Shown here piece by piece: positions 17,640-49,538 of a DNA stretch of 64,000 bases. This stretch comes from Octopus vulgaris. Taxonomy: Eukaryota. Position numbers and translations under genes: made by a program. Within the stretch, counting starts at the first letter, position 1, and every line of letters begins with the position of its first letter. The notes under the pieces are model-generated. The model searched no databases, was not told the DNA's origin, and saw only the letters and a program-made list of their open reading frames with translations. The stretch covers positions 16,492,001-16,556,000 of the forward strand of contig OX597829.1 of assembly GCA_951406725.2 (NCBI GenBank), written 5' to 3'.

Positions 17640-20487
17640 TGCATGAAAAGCAACAAAGAACGGACCAACCCAACCAAACAACACCACCACCTGCGCCAAG
17701 AACAGAATCATCACCACCAACAACAACTAAACCAATTCCAACACCGAGAACAACAACGAAGAAGACAAGCACCAAGGATGTAGGAGAGACAATCACCACA
17801 CCAAACCCCCCAGCAACACACCCCGCACACTACAACCGCACAAACAGACCCAGATGCTTTACCCTTGCCCCCTGCTGATTCGTCAGACTTTTCATCTCAC
17901 GATGAAAGTTCGACAGAATGGCAAATAGCCACCGGGGATAAAAGAAAAAGATAAAAAGAAAACAAACAAGAAAACGCAACCAAAGCAGGGAGATAACTGA
18001 ACCCTGAAAGCTCCATACACAACCAAACAAGCACCAACACCACAAAAACACACACAATGCTATCAGCGATAGACACAAAAGACTCCAAACTAATGGAGTA
18101 CATCACAGCCCACACAAACATCTGTGAAGATGACTTCAAAACTAACAACCATCCACGCACTACACCACCCAAACACATCAAAATACTATACATCACACAG
18201 ACAGAACACCACACACTCAAAGCCCTCTTTCCAAATGCTCAATTCAGACCTGAAAATTTTGACAAAGGTGTTAGCCAAGAGGTTGGCGCTTGTCATCGAG
18301 AAACTGGTCGATAACGCATAAACGTGCGCCATGCCGGGCCGGAGCATCCATGACAACCTCCATCTAAAGCGCTACATCATAGACAGAGTAGTTAAGGAAC
18401 CTGGCATGGGTGGGGTCCTGATCAACTTGGATCAATCGAAAGCCTTCGATAGGGTAGACCATCGATACTTGGAGGCAGTCCTGAGAGCGGCTGGTTTCGG
18501 TCCCGTCTTCCGCGGCTGGATAGCTGCCTTGTACAGAGGCATCCGTTCGGTAATTCGCGTAAATGGACATCTATCGAGACCTTTCGACATTGCACGTTCG
18601 GTCCGTCAGGGATGCCCCCTCTCGGCGTTTCTATACGTATTGACTCTTGAGCCACTACTGCGGAAGCTGGCGACTCTGCGGAGCATCCCGCGAGAATTGG
18701 GATGCGGGACGAGCGTGTCTGCATACGCAGACGACGTCACCGTCATAGTGTCGAGCCACGAGCACATCGAGCTAGTCAGCGAGACACTGAAAGACTACGA
18801 AGCGGTGACAGGAGCAAAAATCAACCGGGAAAAGTCAGTGGGCTTGCGGCTCGGCACCTGGAGAAGCAAGCCCATGCCGTCCACCAGTACCTCCGTCGTG
18901 GGACGCTGGACAGACGGCCCGGTCGAGTTGCTCGGGGTCTGGTTCGGTCCGGACCTCCAAATGGAGAAGAACTGGAACGAGATAACGAGTAGGGTGGTCA
19001 CTCTCGCCCAGCAATGGGCCGAGAGGAAACTGTCCGTAAAAGGTCGGGCGGAGGTGGCGAACACGTACATCGCGTCCATCATCTACTACCGCCTGACCGT
19101 CATACCTTGTCCCGACCCTACCATCACCAAACTAGAACGCATTCTCTTCCGTTTCTTGTGGAAAGGATGCGTCCCGATGGTCAGGCGATCCATTTGCTGT
19201 CAACACCCATTAAAAGGAGGGCTGGGTATGCCATGGTTGATGATGCGCAGAAACGCGCTGAGACTGCGACATCTCCGGCTCTATGTAGACGACGGTGAAC
19301 AGGTGTGGTCGCCGTTTGTGAGGCACGCGTTCCCGCAGCTCGTCTCCATGACCGAACTGCAGTCGTGGATCAAAAACAGGCCGAGGAAGGGCGAATGGCA
19401 CCGCGAGTGTTGCGTTGCTCTCAAGCAACTCTGCCGTCCCGGGTCGACCTTGAGTGACTTCAACACAACCAAAGCATTCTATAGGGGATTAGTGGAGGCG
19501 AGGTACGACGACGATCTTGGGGCAAACCTGGGCGTCGACGAGGAATACCTGACCTGCCTATTTGAAACGACTTTCGGCCCGGGACCTATGGACAACTTCC
19601 AGAGATCCCTGGCCTGGTGGTGCTACCGAGAAGCGTTACCCGTTCGGGATAAACTCTATAGGCATGGCTCGAGAAACACGGGCCGACCTGCCCGAGATGC
19701 GGGCAGAGCGACGAAACCGCTCTGCACGCAATCGTGCAGTGTCCAACAATCTCCGACCTGTGGGCTTATGTCGAACGACTGGTGTCACGTGTGGGACGTG
19801 TCGGTTTATCAGCCGAGTCTATCGTTAATATCGTCACGCCTCCTTCCTTCAAACGGGAAGGAAGAGCTATTTTTATCATACTTGTGGCTATGGCGAAAGA
19901 ATGTATCTGGTTGACGCGCCTGAAAGGATTAGAGACAAACACTTTCCTCTCTGGTCAATCTCTCATCAACTTTTTCAAGTATCACTTGAAGAGGAAAGTG
20001 AGAGTAGAGAGGCAAGTTTTGTCTAGTGAATGCTTTAAAAAAAGATGGGTGAATGTAGCAAGGATGGCACGTATGAATGACGAAGCCACCTTGACTATGA
20101 TTCTATGAACCGCAAAAATTAATACAGAGAGTTGCTTATTTGCAAAAAAAAAAAAGAAATATAACATGTGACTTCATTGACCGAGGTTACCGTGGTCTTT
20201 TCCGTAGGCATTTCTTTCCACGGGTAAACCTCACCTGTCCTCCCCTTTACACTTCATATTGACATTTCTGTGATAACGATCCCTATTGATCAATTTTTTT
20301 TCCTTTCCCTTCCCCCCCTTTTTTAATTTTTAATTTTTTATTTTATCCTCTCCTTTTTTGTCCTCTTTTCTTTCCTTTTACGATCCCTTTTGATCGAAAA
20401 CCAAACCCCCTTTTTACCCCCAAAAGAAAAGCTCTACCTTGTAATTTGTTCTGTCTGTGTGCAGCCCTGTGTGGCTAATAAAGAAAC
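17640..20487 (+). mobile_element. Tx1-clade (L1 group) LINE, internally deleted, inserted in (TATC)n
   Basis: An ORF1-like C/A-rich remnant is fused directly to RT (LNSDLKILTKVLAKRL) with no endonuclease domain. The 3' UTR ends CTAATAAAGAAACA, and (TATC)n lies on both flanks. Confidence 0.9.
18234..20108 (+). pseudogene. Tx1-type ORF2 reverse transcriptase and C-terminal zinc knuckle (one stop, one frameshift near 19680)
   Basis: LDQSKAFDRVDH, SVRQGCPLS, AYADDVTV, KGGLGMP and CPRCGQSDETALHAIVQC. GC-rich relative to the flanks. Confidence 0.92.
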
Positions 20488-23137: not shown

Positions 23138-23343
23138 CCATGCACACACATCCATGCACAAACATTTGTGTATATGCACACATATAATCCTTTCTGTCAA
23201 TGAGCGTAGGCTTGAAATGTCAAAGAGTTTTCCGTTCTTCTCGAACATTAAATTAATACACCTGCTTTTTGTTCTCTCACCTTTGTCTTTTGTTTTTTCC
23301 ATATATATTTATATATATATGTATGTATATATATAGAGAGAGA

Positions 23344-27556: not shown

Positions 27557-28224
27557 TAGCTCGCTTCTGCTCATAATATATATAATTTCAATCCAGAAGG
27601 TCACTGATTTTGCAACAAGCAAAAATGGTAGTTTTAAAACCTCTCTAAGAGATCAATGCAGTAGTTGCACTAAGAAGTAATGTTCAGAGCCACTTCAACC
27701 TGGCCATCCATTTGAATGGACTTCACTGTGATTTTTTAACCCCTCTAGCTGGTTAACGATGCACAGCTGCATCTGAGATATTGTGACCAGGGGAGCAAAT
27801 CCCTACCTCCTTCTAGCGACAGGACCAGCAGACCAGTCTGGTTTTAGAACTAGCTTTTTTGCTTGTTGCAAAATCAGTGACTGTATGCCGCTTGAACTAT
27901 ACATATATTGCGACCAGAAGGGTGCTACTGCCATCTCTAGCAGATGAGGTGTCCAGTACTGAAGAGAAGCAGAAATAGCCCGAAACCAGACTGATCTACT
28001 GGTCCCATCGCTTGAAGGTGGTAGGGGTTCACTCCCCTGCTTGCAATATCTCAGATGCAGCTCTGCACCGTTAACCAGTTAGAGGAGTTGTCTTTTTGGG
28101 GTTAAAAAATTGCAATAAAGTCCGTTCAAATAGATGGCCATGTTGAAGTGGCTAAAAATATTACTTGTTAGCATGAATACTGTGTTGACCACTTACAGTA
28201 ATTATAGAATGTGCATTTTTGCTT
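27557..28224. mobile_element. Hammerhead-containing ~360-nt repeat (retrozyme/Penelope-like), inverted pair, locus 1
   Basis: Minus copy 27557-27845 and plus copy 27842-28224. The end of the plus copy repeats its start (period 360). Confidence 0.75.
27938..28014 (+). ncRNA. Type I hammerhead ribozyme
   Basis: CCAGUA-CUGAAGA-stem II-GAAA-CCAGACUG-AUC-UACUGG, with a 6-bp stem I plus distal pairing. Confidence 0.75.
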
Positions 28225-30718: not shown

Positions 30719-30939
30719 TATATTTTGAGTATTGTTATCACTAGCGATATCAAGATATAACTTTGTATTTTGTATTTTATGTGTAGATGTATATATATAG
30801 ATGTACATGTAATATGTACACATATATATATACACATATATACATGCATAATATATCTACCCATACACACATACACACACACACACACACACACATACAT
30901 AGGGGCAGGTGTGGCTGTGTGGTAACAAACTACGTTCAA

Positions 30940-31585
30940 AGATACTGTACTTGATATGGGCAGTAGTGCCTTGCCGGTCTATGGCCTACCTTCAACAAAC
31001 CGGGAAGGCAGAAACACTCTGTCTTCACATTTGCTGCGTGAGACATATTTTAATGTTGACGAGCTTGCCGAGTACATAGCCGACAATGAGCCAAAGCTCC
31101 TTCCAGAACAGAAGTTCGCTTACAACTCCGTTGTTAATTCAGTCCGGGCCAAAGCTGGGGGAATTTTTTTCCTGGATGCTCCTGGGGGCACTGGGAAAAC
31201 TTTTGTCAACAAATTAATATTGGCTGAGATTAGGCGAACACAAGGCATTGCCCCAGCTGTGACATCATCTGGAATTGCGGCTACTTTGTTGCCAGGCGGC
31301 AGGACAGCTCAATCCACTTTCAAGCTCCCGCTTGACTTAGCGAAGACTGAGATACCAACTTGCAACATCAGTAACAGCTCCGATCAGGCAGAAGTCTTCA
31401 GACGATGCAAGCTTATCGTTTGGGATGAATGCACGATGGCCCACAGAGGTGCTCTTGAGGCACTAGATAGATCTCTCAGAGACATCAAACACTCTTCAGC
31501 TCCCATGGGAGGCATACCACTTCTTCTTTCAGGGGACTTCCGACAAACACTTCCCGTTATTCCCAAAGGGACTAGAGCTGATGCA
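30940..31585 (+). pseudogene. Helitron PIF1-like SF1 helicase fragment
   Basis: FFLDAPGGTGKTF (motif I), SSGIAATLLPGGRTAQSTFKLP, IVWDECTM (motif II) and SGDFRQTLPV (motif III), then truncated. Confidence 0.93.
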
Positions 31586-31674
31586 TTAAGTGCAGAAATA
31601 GGCCTGGGTATAGATATATATATATATATACACACACACACATATATATGTGTGTGTATGTATATACATATATA

Positions 31675-32507
31675 CAGGGTGCGTTATGTAAATTGTCACC
31701 GTTTTATAGTTTTAATTTCATGTGTGTGCACTGATTGTTTTGATTTTGTCAACTACACAGTAGTCTTCCAAGAGTTTGGAAATGACATGCTGTACTGCTT
31801 GGTTTTCACACCAGAAGCTCCAATACAAACAGATGGTGAACGCACAGAACAACTGTTGGCTTGCTGTGTCCCCAAAACATGTACCGAGAGTGATAAAAAT
31901 CAAACATCCAGTCAACATCATGCTATTTGGAGTGATCACTAGTGGTGGTGACGTTATGCTACCATTCACCTTCCCACACACCCTCAGACTCAATACAGAG
32001 GCCTACATCAAGTGCCTGGAGGAGGTAGTGCTGCCCTGGGTTAAGAAGGTGGCTGCTGGAAGATCCTGTATCTGGCAACGAGACTCTGCACCATGCCACA
32101 CAAACAGACAAAGCCAGTCATGTCTATCAGACAATTTTTGTGATCACATCACCCCTAACATCAGGCCATCTAACTCCCCAGACTGCAACCACCTTGATTG
32201 TTATGTGTAGGGTGCAGTTGAGTGAGAGACTAACAAAATTCCTTGTAACACCAAAGATGAACTGAAGGCAAGGATTATGGCAGCATTCACCATCTTAAAC
32301 AAGAAGACCATTCAGAAGAGTTGCAAGAGATTCTGAAGTTGTCTGGAGGCCATGGTTGAAGCCAATGGCGATTTTATTGAATAAATTTACTCTTCAGTAT
32401 TTCAAGATATTTTCATGTAATTTTGGTAAATATATCTATTAAAATGATATATCAGTGTTATTTTGATTTTTGCGTAAATTTGACAACAATATATTCACGG
32501 CATCCTG
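31675..32507 (+). mobile_element. maT (DD37D) internal-deletion derivative
   Basis: TA-CAGGGTGC...GCATCCTG-TA ends. WQRDSAPCH to DCNHLD gives 37 residues between the catalytic Asp residues. Confidence 0.88.
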
Positions 32508-36341: not shown

Positions 36342-37425
36342 TTATCTTCAAAATAAATTGAAATAAAGACAGCGTAATTTCAAGAGAAATATGGTAACAA
36401 AAGGGTTAAAGTGATCTAAAATCGAAACCTTTCATCAAAATTTTTGGGTTAATTATATCAGCTTAATAAGGACAGGGTTATTTCACTAAATTCTTCGATA
36501 TCGTCAAAATTAATTGAAACAAAGTGTAATTTCAAGAGATATATGGTAACAAAAGGGTTAAAGTGATCTAAAATCGAAACCTTTCATCAAAATTTTTGGG
36601 TTAATTATATCAGCTTAATAAGGACAGGGTTATTTCACTAAATTCTTCGATATCGTCAAAATTAATTGAAACAAAGTGTAATTTCAAGAGATATATGGTA
36701 ACAAAAGGGTTAAAGTGATCTAAAATCGAAACCTTTCATCAAAATTTTTGGGTTAATTATATCAGCTTAATAAGGACAGGGTTATTTCACTAAATTCTTC
36801 GATATCGTCAAAATTAATTGAAACAAAGTGTAATTTCAAGAGATATATGGTAACAAAAGGGTTAAAGAGATCTAAAATCGAAACCTTTCATCAAAATTTT
36901 TGGGTTAATTATATCAGCTTAATAAGGACAGGGTTATTTCACTAAATTCTTCGATAACGTCAAAATTAATTGAAACAAAGTGTAATTTCAAGAGATATAT
37001 GGTAACAAAAGGGTTAAAGTGATCTAAAATCGAAACCTTTCATCAAAATTTTTGGGTTAATTATATCAGCTTAATAAGGACAGGGTTATTTCACTAAATT
37101 CTTCGATATCGTCAAAATTAATTGAAACAAAGTGTAATTTCAAGAGATATATGGTAACAAAAGGGTTAAAGTGATCTAAAATCGAAACCTTTCATCAAAA
37201 TTTTTGGGTTAATTATATCAGCTTAATAAGGACAGGGTTATTTCACTAAATTCTTCGTTATCTTCAAAATTAATTGAAACAAAGTGTAATTTCAAGAGAA
37301 ATATGGTAACAAAAGGGTTAAAGTGATCTAAAATTAAAACTTTCTATCAAAATTTTATGTTATATTCAAAAGACCATCTTAATAATAATGATATCATACT
37401 AAATTCTTCACTATATTCAAAAGCC
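36342..37425 (+). repeat. 152-bp tandem repeat, ~7 units
   Basis: AAAGTGTAAT recurs at 36521, 36673, 36825, 36977, 37129 and 37281. Degenerate units flank the array. Confidence 0.97.
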
Positions 37426-43185: not shown

Positions 43186-44486
43186 CGAGGGGCGTTCAAT
43201 AAGTAATGCCCCTGACCCACTTCCCATAGCAGTAGAGCAACGAAACTTGGCACAGTTATTAGTCTTTTTCTACATAAGAAGCACCTAGAGTTACACATTT
43301 CTCCCATCATTTGATGCAGCTCTGGAGACCATTTTTGTAGAAGACCCCAGCTTGGTCCTCCAACCACGATGTGACTTCAGAAATCAAGGCTGCATCATCT
43401 GGGAAACGCTTTCCTTTCAAAAACAACTTCATGGCTGTGAAGAGGTGAAAATCAGAGGGTGCAAGGTCAGGAGAGTAGGGGGGATGGGGGAGGATTTCAT
43501 AGCCGCACGCCTGTGCTTCTGATCTGGCGACACGCGAGTTGTGGACCGGAGCGTTATCCTGCAGGAGGAGGATGCCTTTGCTGATCTTGCCCCGCCTCTT
43601 GATTTTGATAGCTTCTCTTAATTTCCTCAAAAGTGAAGCATAATAGGCTTCTGTAATTGTGGTACCCTTTGCCAAGAAATCTGTCATCACTACTCCATCC
43701 TGGTCCCAGAAGTTGTGAGTATGACCTTGCCAGCGAAGGGCTGCACCCTTGCCTTCTTTGGAGGAGGTGAGTCACGGTGCTTCCACTGCATTGACTGGTC
43801 TCTGGTCTCTGGTCTCTGGATCATAGTGATGGACCCAGGTTTCATCCTGTGTAATCAGTCCTTTGAAAAATTTTGACTCATTTTCCTGGCACCTCTCCAA
43901 ATTCATCCTTTAGCACTCGACGCGTTCATGCTTCTGGAAAGGTGTGAGCAGCCTGGGAATCCATCTGGCAGACACCTTTTGCATATGCAAATGGTCATGA
44001 ATGATAGTTTCCACAGACCCGGTACTAATCTTGACCTCAGGGGCTATTTGGCAAATAGTTATGCGTCGATCTTCCAAAATGGCAGCCTCAAATTGATGGA
44101 CAGATGCCTCATCAATGGCAGAAGGTGGGGGGCACCAGATCTGGGAGCTGTTTCCACAGAGTTCGGACCATGTTTGAATTCATGATGCCAGCGTTTTACA
44201 AGATCATATGATGGGGCATCATCATCATAAGTTACTTTCATTTCATCAAAAGTCTCCCGTGGTGTGCGTCCTTTCAAACACAAAAACCGGATCACTGCTC
44301 GACACTCAACAGGCTCCATTTCACACTTGACTCGGTTCAAACACCTGTAAATCAGAAATCACAATTAATTCATAGCTGTAATTTGCCACTTACTCTATAG
44401 AGATATAAATGATTGCACATACAAAATTTCAGCAAGATCAAACAACTGCAAGTGGGTCAGAGACATTACTTATTGAACGTCCCTCA
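43186..44486 (-). mobile_element. Full-length mariner element (irritans-like), ~1.3 kb
   Basis: TIRs CGAGGGGCGTTCAATAAGTAATG / CATTACTTATTGAACGTCCCTCA, with TA flanks. Confidence 0.95.
43259..44340 (-). pseudogene. mariner DD34D transposase, frameshifted
   Basis: RAVIRFLCLKG HTH, ITQDETWVHHYD, LLQDNAPVH, HPPYSPDLAPSDFHLF. Confidence 0.93.
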
Positions 44487-45267: not shown

Positions 45268-45649
45268 ACATTGGGACTGAATCCAGAACAATGTGCTTGA
45301 AAAGTAAACTTCTTAACATGTACAACTGCAACATAAAATCACGTAAAAAATGTGTCTAAAATATTTTACCTCGTTCCACGACCATGATGTAAAATTCTGA
45401 AATAAAAGATAAGAACCATCGAAAGGTACCATGAAAAGCTTGAACACACGTAACAACATGAGCACCTTGAATTCATTAAAGATTTTAACATTTGATATGC
45501 TATGACGAAACATGTACGCGTTATCTTAGAATGATCCTTCCTCAATGTTTATCGGTAAATTTAGAGGAAATTTATCACACATCACACATTACTGAAATAA
45601 AACACTGCACCAACACTAACATACACAACACCAAAACAACAAAACACTA

Positions 45650-47965
45650 CAACAACACTACCATACACCACACCAAACCTACCATACACCACACCAACAC
45701 TACCATACACCACACCAACACTACCATACACCACACCAACACTACCATACACCACACCACACCAACACTACCATACACACACCAACACCACCATACACCA
45801 CACCAACACTACCATACACCACACCAACACCACCATACACCATACCAACACTACCATACACCACACCAACACTACATACACCACACCAACACTACCATAC
45901 ACCACACCAACACCACCATACACCACACCAACACTACCATACACCACACCAACACTACCATACACCACACCAACACTACCATACACCACACCAACACTAC
46001 CATACACCACACCAACACTACCATACACCACACCAACACTACCATACACCACACCAACACTACCATACACCACACCAACACTACCATACACCACACCAAC
46101 ACTACCATACACCAAACCAACACTACCATACACAACACCAACACTACCATACACCATACCAACACTACCATACACCACAGCAACACTACCATACACCAAA
46201 CCAACACTACTTTACACCACACATTACACCAACACTACCATACACCACACCAACACTACCATACACCACACCAACACTACCATACACAACACCAACACTA
46301 CCATACACCATACCAACACTACCATACACCACACCAACACTACCATACACCACACCAACACTACCATACACCACACCAACACTACCATACAACACACCAA
46401 CACTACTATACACCACACCAACACTACCATACACCACACCAACACTACCATACAACACACCAACACTACCATACACCACACCAACACTACCATACACACA
46501 CCTACACTACCATACACACACCTACACTACCATACACCACACCAACACTACCATACACCACACCAACACTACCATACAACACACCAACACTACTATACAC
46601 CACACCAACACTACCATACACCACACCAACACTACCATACAACACACCAACACTACCTATACACCACACCAACACTACCATACACCACACCAACACTACC
46701 ATACAACACACCAACACTACTATACACCACACCAACACTACCATACACCACACCAACACTACCATACAACACACCAACACTACCATACACCACACCAACA
46801 CTACCATACACCACACCAACACTACCATACAACACACCAACACTACTATACACCACACCAACACTACCATACACCACACTACCATACAACACACCAACAC
46901 TACCATACACCACACCAACACTACCATACACCACACCAACACTACCATACACCACACCAACACTACCATACAACACACCAACACTACCATACACCACACC
47001 AACACTACCATACACCACACCAACACTACCATACACCAAACCAACACTACTATACACCACACCAACACTACCATACACCACACCAACACTACCATACAAC
47101 ACACCAACACTACTATACACCACACCAACACTACCATACACCACACCAACACTACCATACACCACACCAACACTACCATACACCACACCAACACTACCAT
47201 ACACCACACCAACACTACCATACAACACACCAACACTACCATACACCACACCAACACTACCATACACACACCAACACTACCATACACCACACCAACACTA
47301 CCATACACACACCAACACTACCATACACCACACCAACACTACCATACACCACACCAACACTACCATACACCAAACCAACACTACTATACACCACACCAAC
47401 ACTACCATACAACACACCAACACTACCATACAACACACCAACACTACTATACACCACACCAACACTACCATACACCACACCAACACTACCATACACCACA
47501 CCAACACTACTATACACCACACCAACACTACCATACACCACACCAACACTACCATACACCACACCAACACTACCATACACCACACCAACACTACCATACA
47601 CCAAACCAACACTACTATACACCACACTAATACTACCATACACCACACCAACACTACCATACAACACACCAACACTACTATACACCACACCAACACTACC
47701 ATACAACACACCAACACTACCATACAACACACCAACACTACTATACACCACACCAACACTACCATACACCACACCACCACTAACATACACCACACCAACA
47801 CTACCATACACCACACTAACACTACCATATGCTACACCAACACTACCATACACCACAGCAACTCTACCATACACCACACCAACACTACCATACACCACAC
47901 CAACACTACCATACACAACACCAACACTACCATACACCACACCAATGCAACTATACACTACACCA
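45650..47965 (+). repeat. 21-bp minisatellite CACCACACCAACACTACCATA, ~110 units
   Basis: Direct periodicity, nearly G-free strand. Source of the HHTNTTI ORFs. Confidence 0.98.
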
Positions 47966-47969
47966 ATAC

Positions 47970-48014
<45 letters not shown>

Positions 48015-48393
48015 TACATATGTATTTATGTGTGTGTATGTCTTTGTGTCTGTGTTTGTCCATGCATCACTGCTTGACAACCGGTGTTGTTGTGTTTATG
48101 TCCTTGTTGTTTAGTGGTTCTGCAATAAAAAACACCCGATAGAATAAGTACTAGGCTTAAGAAATAAGTCCTGGGGTTGATTGGTTTTAACTAAAATTCC
48201 TCAATGTCTTGCTCCAGCATGGCTGCAGTCAAGTGACTGAAACAAGTAAATGAATAAATGAATATATATGCATATATATGTATAAATGCATGTACAAATA
48301 TATATATATATATTTATATGTATTTGTAAATATGTATATATTGATTGCCAGCCACTAAACCTTTTTTTATTTTCACTCTCTGCTTATTTGTGT

Positions 48394-48432
48394 TCCTTTC
48401 TGCTGAAGAGCATAGGCTCGAAAAGTAAAAGA
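48394..48432 (+). ncRNA. Degenerate minimal hammerhead-like motif
   Basis: CUUU-CUGCUGA-A-GAGC-AUAG-GCUC-GAAA-A-GUA-AAAG. Stems I and II pair, but the core has an A6C change. Confidence 0.4.
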
Positions 48433-48768
48433 CTTTTTTATTTCCTGATTGTTAAACTAATGCATCTGTTTGTTGTTTACACACCTGTCTTCGTTGTTTG
48501 TTTTGTTAGTTTTTTTGTAAATTCCAACTATATATTATTTATATGTGTGTACATGTATGTAAATATATATATATATATCTATTTATAATGTTGGCAAATG
48601 AAATAAGTATAAGAATGTGTATTGTCCGTTTAATTAAAAAATTCTATAAGTGGCGGAAGATTGCTCGACATTTTAAAATTGATGTAATACTTACATTGTT
48701 TAATAAAATGAAGTACCATGAAACAATTGTACTACACTACCTTGGATATCCTTGTTGCTTATTTTGAG

Positions 48769-48800
<32 letters not shown>

Positions 48801-48821
48801 TATGTAGATATATGTATGTAT

Positions 48822-49380
48822 AAGCAAAAATGCTAGTTTTAAAACCTCTCTAAGAGATCAATGCAGCAGTTGCACTAAGAAGTTATGTTCAGAGCCACTT
48901 CAACATGGCTATCTGTTTGAATAGACTTCACTGTGAAGCAACATCTCCTCTAGTGAGTTAACAATGCACTGTCCATTCAAACGGAGAGCCATGTAGAAGT
49001 GGCCACGAACATTACTTGTTAGTACAAATACTGCATTGATTTCTCACAAATATTATAGAACTGGCATTTTTGTTTGTTGCAAAACCAGTGACTGTATGTC
49101 ACTAGAAATTATATACATTGTGAGCAGAAGCGAGCTACTGACATCTCTAGCAGACAAGATGTCCAGTACTGAAGACAGGCAGAAGCAGCCCGAAAACAGG
49201 CTGGTCTACTGGTCCTCTTGCTAAAATGTAATAGTGGTTCATTCCCCTGCTCACAATATATTGGAGGCTGTGTGTATTGTTAACCAGCTAGAAGAGATGT
49301 CGTCTTTGGGTTAAAAAATCGTAGTGTAGTTTGTTCGAACAGCCAGCCATGTTGAAGGGCTATGAACATTACTTGCTTGT
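48822..49380. mobile_element. Hammerhead-containing ~360-nt repeat, inverted pair, locus 2
   Basis: Minus partial copy 48822-48969. Plus copy 48970-49380 has terminal redundancy (GCCATGT at 48988 and 49346, period 358). Confidence 0.75.
49148..49223 (+). ncRNA. Type I hammerhead ribozyme
   Basis: CCAGUA-CUGAAGA-CAGGCAGAAGCAGCCC-GAAA-ACAGGCUG-GUC-UACUGG. Confidence 0.75.
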
Positions 49381-49538
49381 ATGTATATATATATTTATAG
49401 AAATATATATGTCTATACATGTATGTATACATGTCTATCTATCTGTCTATCTATCTGCCTGTCTGTCTCTCTCTGTCTCTCTTTCTCTCTCTCTCTCTAT
49501 CTTCTATCTATCTATCTATCTATCTATCTCTCTCTCTC

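Follow-up and report, generated by a model that had tools for sequence, protein, structure and literature searches.

The segment at 48822-49378 of the window (the whole stretch of DNA analysed, 64,000 nucleotides) is an old, decayed copy of an abundant repeat of about 360 bases with a hammerhead motif. We give a probability of roughly two in three to the reading that at this locus, hereafter locus 2, a ~358-nt non-coding hammerhead repeat was inserted head-to-head and has since decayed, the likely agent, acting in trans, being a Penelope-like (PLE) reverse transcriptase-endonuclease. A Penelope-like integration had been proposed in the first-pass annotation of this DNA, and it is supported by the anatomy of the loci in the window, a flanking duplication, a one-sided extension, and nine contigs in which the same end passes into (TA)n.

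Layout of the two loci

Self-comparison of the 64-kb window, whose DNA is animal-type and rich in simple repeats, returned one relative of 48822-49381, located at 27557-28224 (locus 1). Locus 2 consists of an inverted arm running from 48969 back to 48822 (148 nt) and a direct arm at 48971-49378, joined head-to-head. About 1.14 units of a non-coding 358-nt repeat, with one type I hammerhead motif, make up the direct arm. The first-pass annotation had the range open with a plus copy; the sequence from 48822 onward is the inverted arm, and the plus copy comes only later. Its description of the remaining layout was borne out. The direct arm is terminally redundant with a period of 358 (48976-49024 recurs at 49334-49381 with 79.6% identity), the direct arms start at different phases of the unit (at 48971 and, in locus 1, at 27840), and both loci are head-to-head ("tail-out") pairs adjoining TA-rich tracts. 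Contigs of two other sequencing runs with different organism labels (X2 and X7) cross the junction at 48970 with 2 and 9 other letters, and the junction is therefore not an assembly artefact. The features of locus 2 and locus 1 are as follows.

48814-48821 (+), left copy of the likely target-site duplication GTATGTAT, at the end of a TA-rich tract
48822-48969 (-), inverted arm of locus 2, 5'-truncated, 148 nt, with the family terminus CATTTTTGCTT at its end and without the ribozyme
48970 (no strand), head-to-head junction, one base that belongs to neither arm, no clear microhomology
48971-49075 (+), first part of the direct arm, a 5'-truncated unit of 105 nt up to the terminus-equivalent position (partial tandem)
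49068-49084 (+), 6-bp hairpin predicted by folding, with the terminus position (49075/49076) in its 5-nt loop
49076-49378 (+), second unit of the direct arm, ending TTGCTT, 54 nt less than a full unit
49117-49257 (+), long stem predicted by folding, with the ribozyme motif at its tip
49163-49212 (+), type I hammerhead motif: stem I CCAGTA/TACTGG, CTGAAGA, stem II, GAAA, stem III; predicted cut after GTC at 49206
49379-49386 (+), right copy of the likely target-site duplication GTATGTAT, at the start of a TA-rich tract
27557-27844 (-), inverted arm of locus 1, starting in the ribozyme at GAAA, crossing the terminus at 27617 and ending 60 nt on at (TA)n
27840-28224 (+), direct arm of locus 1, 25 nt plus a full 360-nt unit, ending CATTTTTGCTT/(TA)n; ribozyme core at 27959

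The two arms of locus 1 share a 5-nt overlap (GGTTT). Its direct arm has a period of 360, and the locus closes terminus-to-terminus in 360 nt. These two loci, both in the window, are the ones that were fully compared. Their inverted arms were identical at 97/105 positions (92%), and at 72/75 in the terminal part, while being only 72-79% like the direct arms; at 5/7 listed sites a minority letter was common to both inverted arms (48822-48926 vs. 27617-27721). This likeness suggests that gene conversion has taken place between the two loci, which lie 21 kb apart, or that the inverted arms come from a small subfamily. Either would make loci 1 and 2 less independent of each other. At corresponding positions (48930-48948 vs. 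27725-27743) both inverted arms also lack 14 nt relative to the direct arms, with different 11-nt pieces kept. Divergence of the redundant ends (~20%) exceeded that of the inverted arms (p = 0.003 and 0.03). We considered whether this counts against a circular template and rejected the argument: the value equals the general divergence between direct arms (23%), so that it is explained by age and argues neither way on the template.

The family is abundant, with 801, 471, and 629 contigs aligned to the repeat in three DNA-type runs, and back-jumps of ~349-361 nt in other contigs confirm the unit length. Run X24 (49 contigs) is RNA by guess only and was left out of the expression evidence; counts of unit-end overruns (62, 34, and 52) were left out too, as they may include read-through contigs. 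Same-strand joints from inverted to direct arm were found elsewhere (48852>49126, 48910>49271, 48922>49177, and 48858>49293), each in one contig per run. They were scored at 80% likeness with sides of 30-40 letters, among the 15 of 80 joints and 12 of 20 spacer rows listed, and may be mis-joins; they are a weak hint of further, variable inversion junctions.

Other elements were recorded in the window. The stretch 18322-20105 (+) holds a frame for a LINE-type reverse transcriptase (RVT_1, E 4.9e-22) with a weak match to zf-RVT downstream of it. A PIF1-like helicase frame at 30926-31939 (+; E 2.2e-51) is likely a Helitron remnant, and a Transposase_1/DDE_3 fragment at 43310-43771 (-) is likely mariner-type. 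Two very homogeneous tandem arrays lie at 36374-37356 (152-nt unit, 6.5 copies, 98% matches) and 45608-47966 (21-nt unit, 112 copies, 92%). A second, unrelated repeat at 48350-48520 (+) has a minimal hammerhead-like core at 48403 with a very short stem II. It ends in a TA tract 300 bp to the left of locus 2 and has a decayed relative at 23188-23298 (+). It resembles the minimal ribozymes of PLEs and is possibly the end of a PLE.

The hammerhead motif and its stems

The nucleotide assignment at 49163-49212 follows what we take to be the standard hammerhead layout. Core and stem I are intact and stems II and III pair with the family's commonest letters, as in a canonical type I motif. Searches with Rfam gave no family at gathering score anywhere in the window, and hammerhead was absent among 37 weak matches at 48300-49450. 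A hammerhead core pattern matched 0 stretches in viral contigs; its sole match in metagenome contigs (L001) was dismissed as a chance match in GC-rich, bacterial-type coding DNA.

The first-pass annotation had claimed a conserved core. The core together with the 6-bp stem I was identical at 25/25 positions between the loci, against 226/293 over the remainder of the direct arms (Fisher p = 0.004, from a comparison of only two copies). The claim did not extend to the whole motif, where 43/50 identical positions against 208/268 for the rest was not a significant difference (p = 0.26). Locus 2 has a C.C mismatch at the first pair of stem II and an A.G mismatch in stem III, and in locus 1 two pairs are broken (A.C and C.A). 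In run X2, letters with 78-100% of the aligned depth repair six pairs that are broken in locus 2, both ribozyme pairs included (among 40 of 212 rows listed), and locus 1 carries the listed alternative letter at 20/23 such sites. Because the commonest family letters restore these pairs and locus 1 has most of them, the family looks intact and locus 2 decayed. The locus 2 copy is predicted from its letters to cut poorly. In active family members the ribozyme would likely cut multimeric transcripts to monomers, by analogy with animal retrozymes. In the locus 1 inverted arm, stem III (27835-27844, -) is a perfect palindrome around one base, and cleavage as a dimer could be possible there, as in amphibian retrozymes.

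A claim of covariation in distal stem I (GAUG/CAUC vs. CAAGA/UCUUG) failed. The two sets of pairs sit in different registers and are therefore not homologous. In the homologous register the loci differ by two double changes, one at 49156-49216 and one at 49121-49253, each on a paired CpG site; we infer an ancestral CpG at each from locus 1, the listed letters, and the loose-end rows. With registers that differ and both real double changes on CpG pairs, the covariation argument does not hold, and in the comparison of the two copies covariation was not above that of shuffles (133/500 shuffles). Covariation tests on such repeats must mask paired CpG sites, because their decay mimics compensatory change. 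Folds of the monomers, from decayed copies, had 58-68% of bases paired and were only mildly better than shuffles (z from -0.3 to -1.8 as circles, -0.75 and -2.2 as linear molecules). An "anti-ribozyme" pairing of the terminus with stem II, which falls at the locus 1 junction, was considered and rejected: the terminus window was outside the 12 best, and 74/300 shuffles matched the best duplex.

Insertion ends and how they may have arisen

The sequence CATTTTTGCTT followed by a TA tract ends the direct arm of locus 1 (28224) and the inverted arm of locus 2 (48822), so that one arm of each locus ends alike, as the first-pass annotation had stated. Two of the four arms in the window end exactly at CATTTTTGCTT/(TA)n and one, the inverted arm of locus 1, extends 60 nt beyond the terminus, a tail that was seen once. 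Another, the direct arm of locus 2, probably ended at the terminus before a loss of 54 nt. The terminus lies 227-228 nt downstream of the predicted ribozyme cut. The 6-bp hairpin around it is predicted in both read-through copies of locus 1 as well, that is, in all three read-through copies in the window; the z values of the hairpin segments were -2.7, -0.2, -0.4, -0.4, and +0.4, with 1/5 clearly better than shuffles. In run X11, nine contigs, perhaps not separate loci, go through the terminus into (TA)n and 14 read on into the unit; of the 24 loose-end rows listed out of 646, the X11 row alone passed from the unit into (TA)n. The terminus was read through in 25 contigs of run X2 and 14 of run X7, with no unit-to-(TA)n row among the rows listed. 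The 3' end that had been called defined does recur, in the arms in the window and in nine contigs of another organism label, but with read-through in 25, 14, and 14 contigs it is preferred rather than absolute.

The right edge of locus 2 fits 49378 (or 49377), where the flanking duplication begins, and the outer ends of the locus read AAGCAA at the left and TTGCTT at 49378. This right end stops 54 nt before the terminus, with a TTG on either side of the missing stretch. It is likely the result of a deletion back to the usual end, the reading that we prefer, though it may be an alternative end or a plain truncation near 49381. The duplication measures 8 bp (9 bp counting the last T) and encloses the whole inverted pair. 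The GTATGTAT 8-mer starts at 0.66% of the strand-positions in such TA-rich tracts, and a rival 10-nt match of the flank at 49418 indicates that such duplications are not rare in TA tracts, which makes the support from the duplication moderate. No target-site duplication was discernible for locus 1 within its (TA)n. The flanking duplication (8-9 bp) and the 60-nt one-sided extension are new observations and match the published anatomy of Penelope insertions.

Both loci (2/2) show the PLE-type combination of a partial tandem with an adjacent inverted, 5'-truncated copy, and the family has a PLE-type defined 3' end with an optional one-sided tail. At locus 2 there is also, with moderate strength, a PLE-type duplication of 8-10 bp in an AT-rich target. 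The insertion that we propose would begin with two nicks by a helper enzyme, one in each strand of a target rich in (TA)n and 8-9 bp from each other. Each nick would prime reverse transcription inside the RNA, preferably at the predicted hairpin loop 227 nt downstream of the cut, and a second start site 60 nt on would give the tail of locus 1. One cDNA would pass the cleavage site and exceed one unit, the template being an uncleaved tandem transcript or a ligated circle. The two truncated cDNAs would then be joined head-to-head with an overlap of 0-5 nt, and later decay would have broken stems II and III and likely removed the 54 nt at the right end. Both direct arms span the predicted cleavage site, so a linear monomer produced by cleavage could have templated them on its own only with a jump. 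The circular or multimeric RNA template suggested earlier is needed in this weak form; the arms do not distinguish a circle from an uncleaved tandem transcript.

We consider it unlikely that these pieces are instead 5'-truncated ends (pseudo-LTRs) of an autonomous PLE and not a self-standing small repeat. An identical insertion anatomy is described for autonomous PLEs, whose pseudo-LTRs carry hammerheads too, and in the accessible part of a recent preprint 24/57 Xenopus retrozyme families are homologous to known elements, with PLEs in 21/22 of those (bioRxiv 10.64898/2026.07.22.740005). The loop is nevertheless closed, terminus-to-terminus, within 360 nt in locus 1 and at ~349-361 nt in other contigs, and the longest stop-free frame inside the unit has at most 91 codons. 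The hammerhead here has full stems II and III, against the minimal forms that the accessible text of PMC7761336 gives for PLEs.

An origin of the inverted pairs in the DNA itself, after insertion, by fold-back or repair near unstable TA tracts, would make the shared end a coincidence or a copy from one locus to the other. The likeness of the inverted arms described above (97/105, with the minority letter in common at 5/7 listed sites), pointing to gene conversion or a small subfamily, speaks for such copying. We nevertheless judge this origin quite improbable, less plausible than the pseudo-LTR reading: the end common to the two loci belongs to the direct arm in locus 1 and to the inverted arm in locus 2, the inverted arm of locus 1 runs 60 nt further, a single duplication brackets the whole locus 2 pair, and the same end occurs in nine contigs of another organism label.

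Twin priming is known to produce 5' inversions in L1, and where it operates the inverted arm should stop near the starting point of the direct arm. Mobilisation of the unit by another retrotransposon (LINE), with inversion by twin priming on one RNA molecule, is the least probable of the alternatives, since a LINE reverse transcriptase sequence is present in the window but the arms overlap by 105 nt (locus 2) and ~85 nt (locus 1) against that expectation, the inverted arms end at the family terminus or its tail, and there is neither poly(A) nor a simple-repeat tail, target tract aside.

The preferred reading of a Penelope-like insertion in trans can be put in a stronger and more speculative form, which we regard as possible and rather doubtful. 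A PLE enzyme would prime both strands of a (TA)n target, start on circular RNAs at a fixed place, the hairpin loop 227 nt past the cut, read more than one round, and join cDNAs from different RNA molecules head-to-head, and the dispersed copies of an abundant retrozyme family would record this reaction. If true, the helper class and the RNA recognition site of animal retrozymes would both be identified. What moves animal retrozymes, and how, is still described as an open question in the accessible literature, and the support so far for PLE helpers has been co-occurrence and homology. Direct evidence from the genome would come from insertion scars, namely an internal start that is fixed, a tail on one side, arms joined head-to-head, duplications, and TA targets, and these would also point to an RNA site that is testable with purified PLE protein. 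With hundreds of contigs per run, this becomes a simple mapping job in an assembly.

Comparison with known systems

The repeat is not an autonomous PLE. No reverse transcriptase or GIY-YIG frame was found in locus 1 or 2 or among the 15 of 79 long frames scanned in the window, and these frames held no helper PLE; their only reverse transcriptase was the LINE-type one (RVT_1 and zf-RVT). The unit itself is only ~360 nt, unlike that of an autonomous PLE.

The family is like the metazoan non-LTR retrozymes (Cervera and de la Pena 2020, PMC7229834) in its full-size type I hammerhead motif, its abundance in an animal genome, a duplication of more than 4 bp, and a non-coding unit of 358-360 nt, against 350-390 nt in mussel. 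With a GC content of 0.41-0.43 the unit falls within the retrozyme range (~150-450 nt, non-coding, GC below 50%). Those retrozymes form tandem arrays, whereas here each locus has 1.07-1.14 units and one ribozyme. Two-ribozyme arrays were absent at 2/2 loci in the window, and there was no two-ribozyme piece among the 32 of 2096 pieces listed from other, short contigs. The main text of PMC7229834 uses the words "inverted", "tail", and "microsatellite" 0 times, and it gives no description of arms joined head-to-head, of a fixed end, or of TA targets. For a squid genome, the accessible part of one report gives 235 hammerhead loci with no detail (PMC6962438).

Endonuclease-positive PLEs provide the closer match for the insertion anatomy. 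In the accessible portions of the reports, their insertions comprise a partial tandem, an adjacent inverted truncated copy, a one-sided tail of 30-40 bp, and a bias to (TA)n (10.1101/2021.04.23.441226), and are mostly head-to-head with duplications of 8-10 bp (PMC3846280). As far as those portions go, the loci described here resemble them in the partial tandem, the inverted truncated neighbour, the one-sided tail, the 8-10 bp duplication, and the AT-rich or (TA)n target, and differ in the length of the tail (60 nt vs. 30-40). On AT-rich DNA, purified PLE protein makes nicks in the two strands and extends both; it starts internally in an RNA stem-loop, with two sites defining the tail, and uncleaved RNA is used (PMC11167929). 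The end of our repeat likewise lies inside the RNA, away from the ribozyme cut; it is 227 nt after the cut here, unlike the ~85-92 nt of the anole element (subtracted from the coordinates in PMC11167929).

PLE helpers for retrozymes were proposed in 2020 (PMC7229834), and a homology argument followed in 2026 (bioRxiv 10.64898/2026.07.22.740005, accessible part). That preprint, which treats retrozymes as non-autonomous PLE derivatives, likewise proposes the partnership and has dispersed monomers; unlike the present analysis, it argues from co-occurrence and pseudo-LTR homology, and in its accessible part inverted arms, tails, and insertion ends are not discussed. A search of the openly accessible literature, mostly at the level of listings, returned no account of this family or of such scars in retrozymes. 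We regard the family as retrozyme-like and likely Penelope-mobilised. Both kinds of element are known and the link between them has already been proposed; what is new is a testable mechanistic footprint, from two full loci and partial tables.
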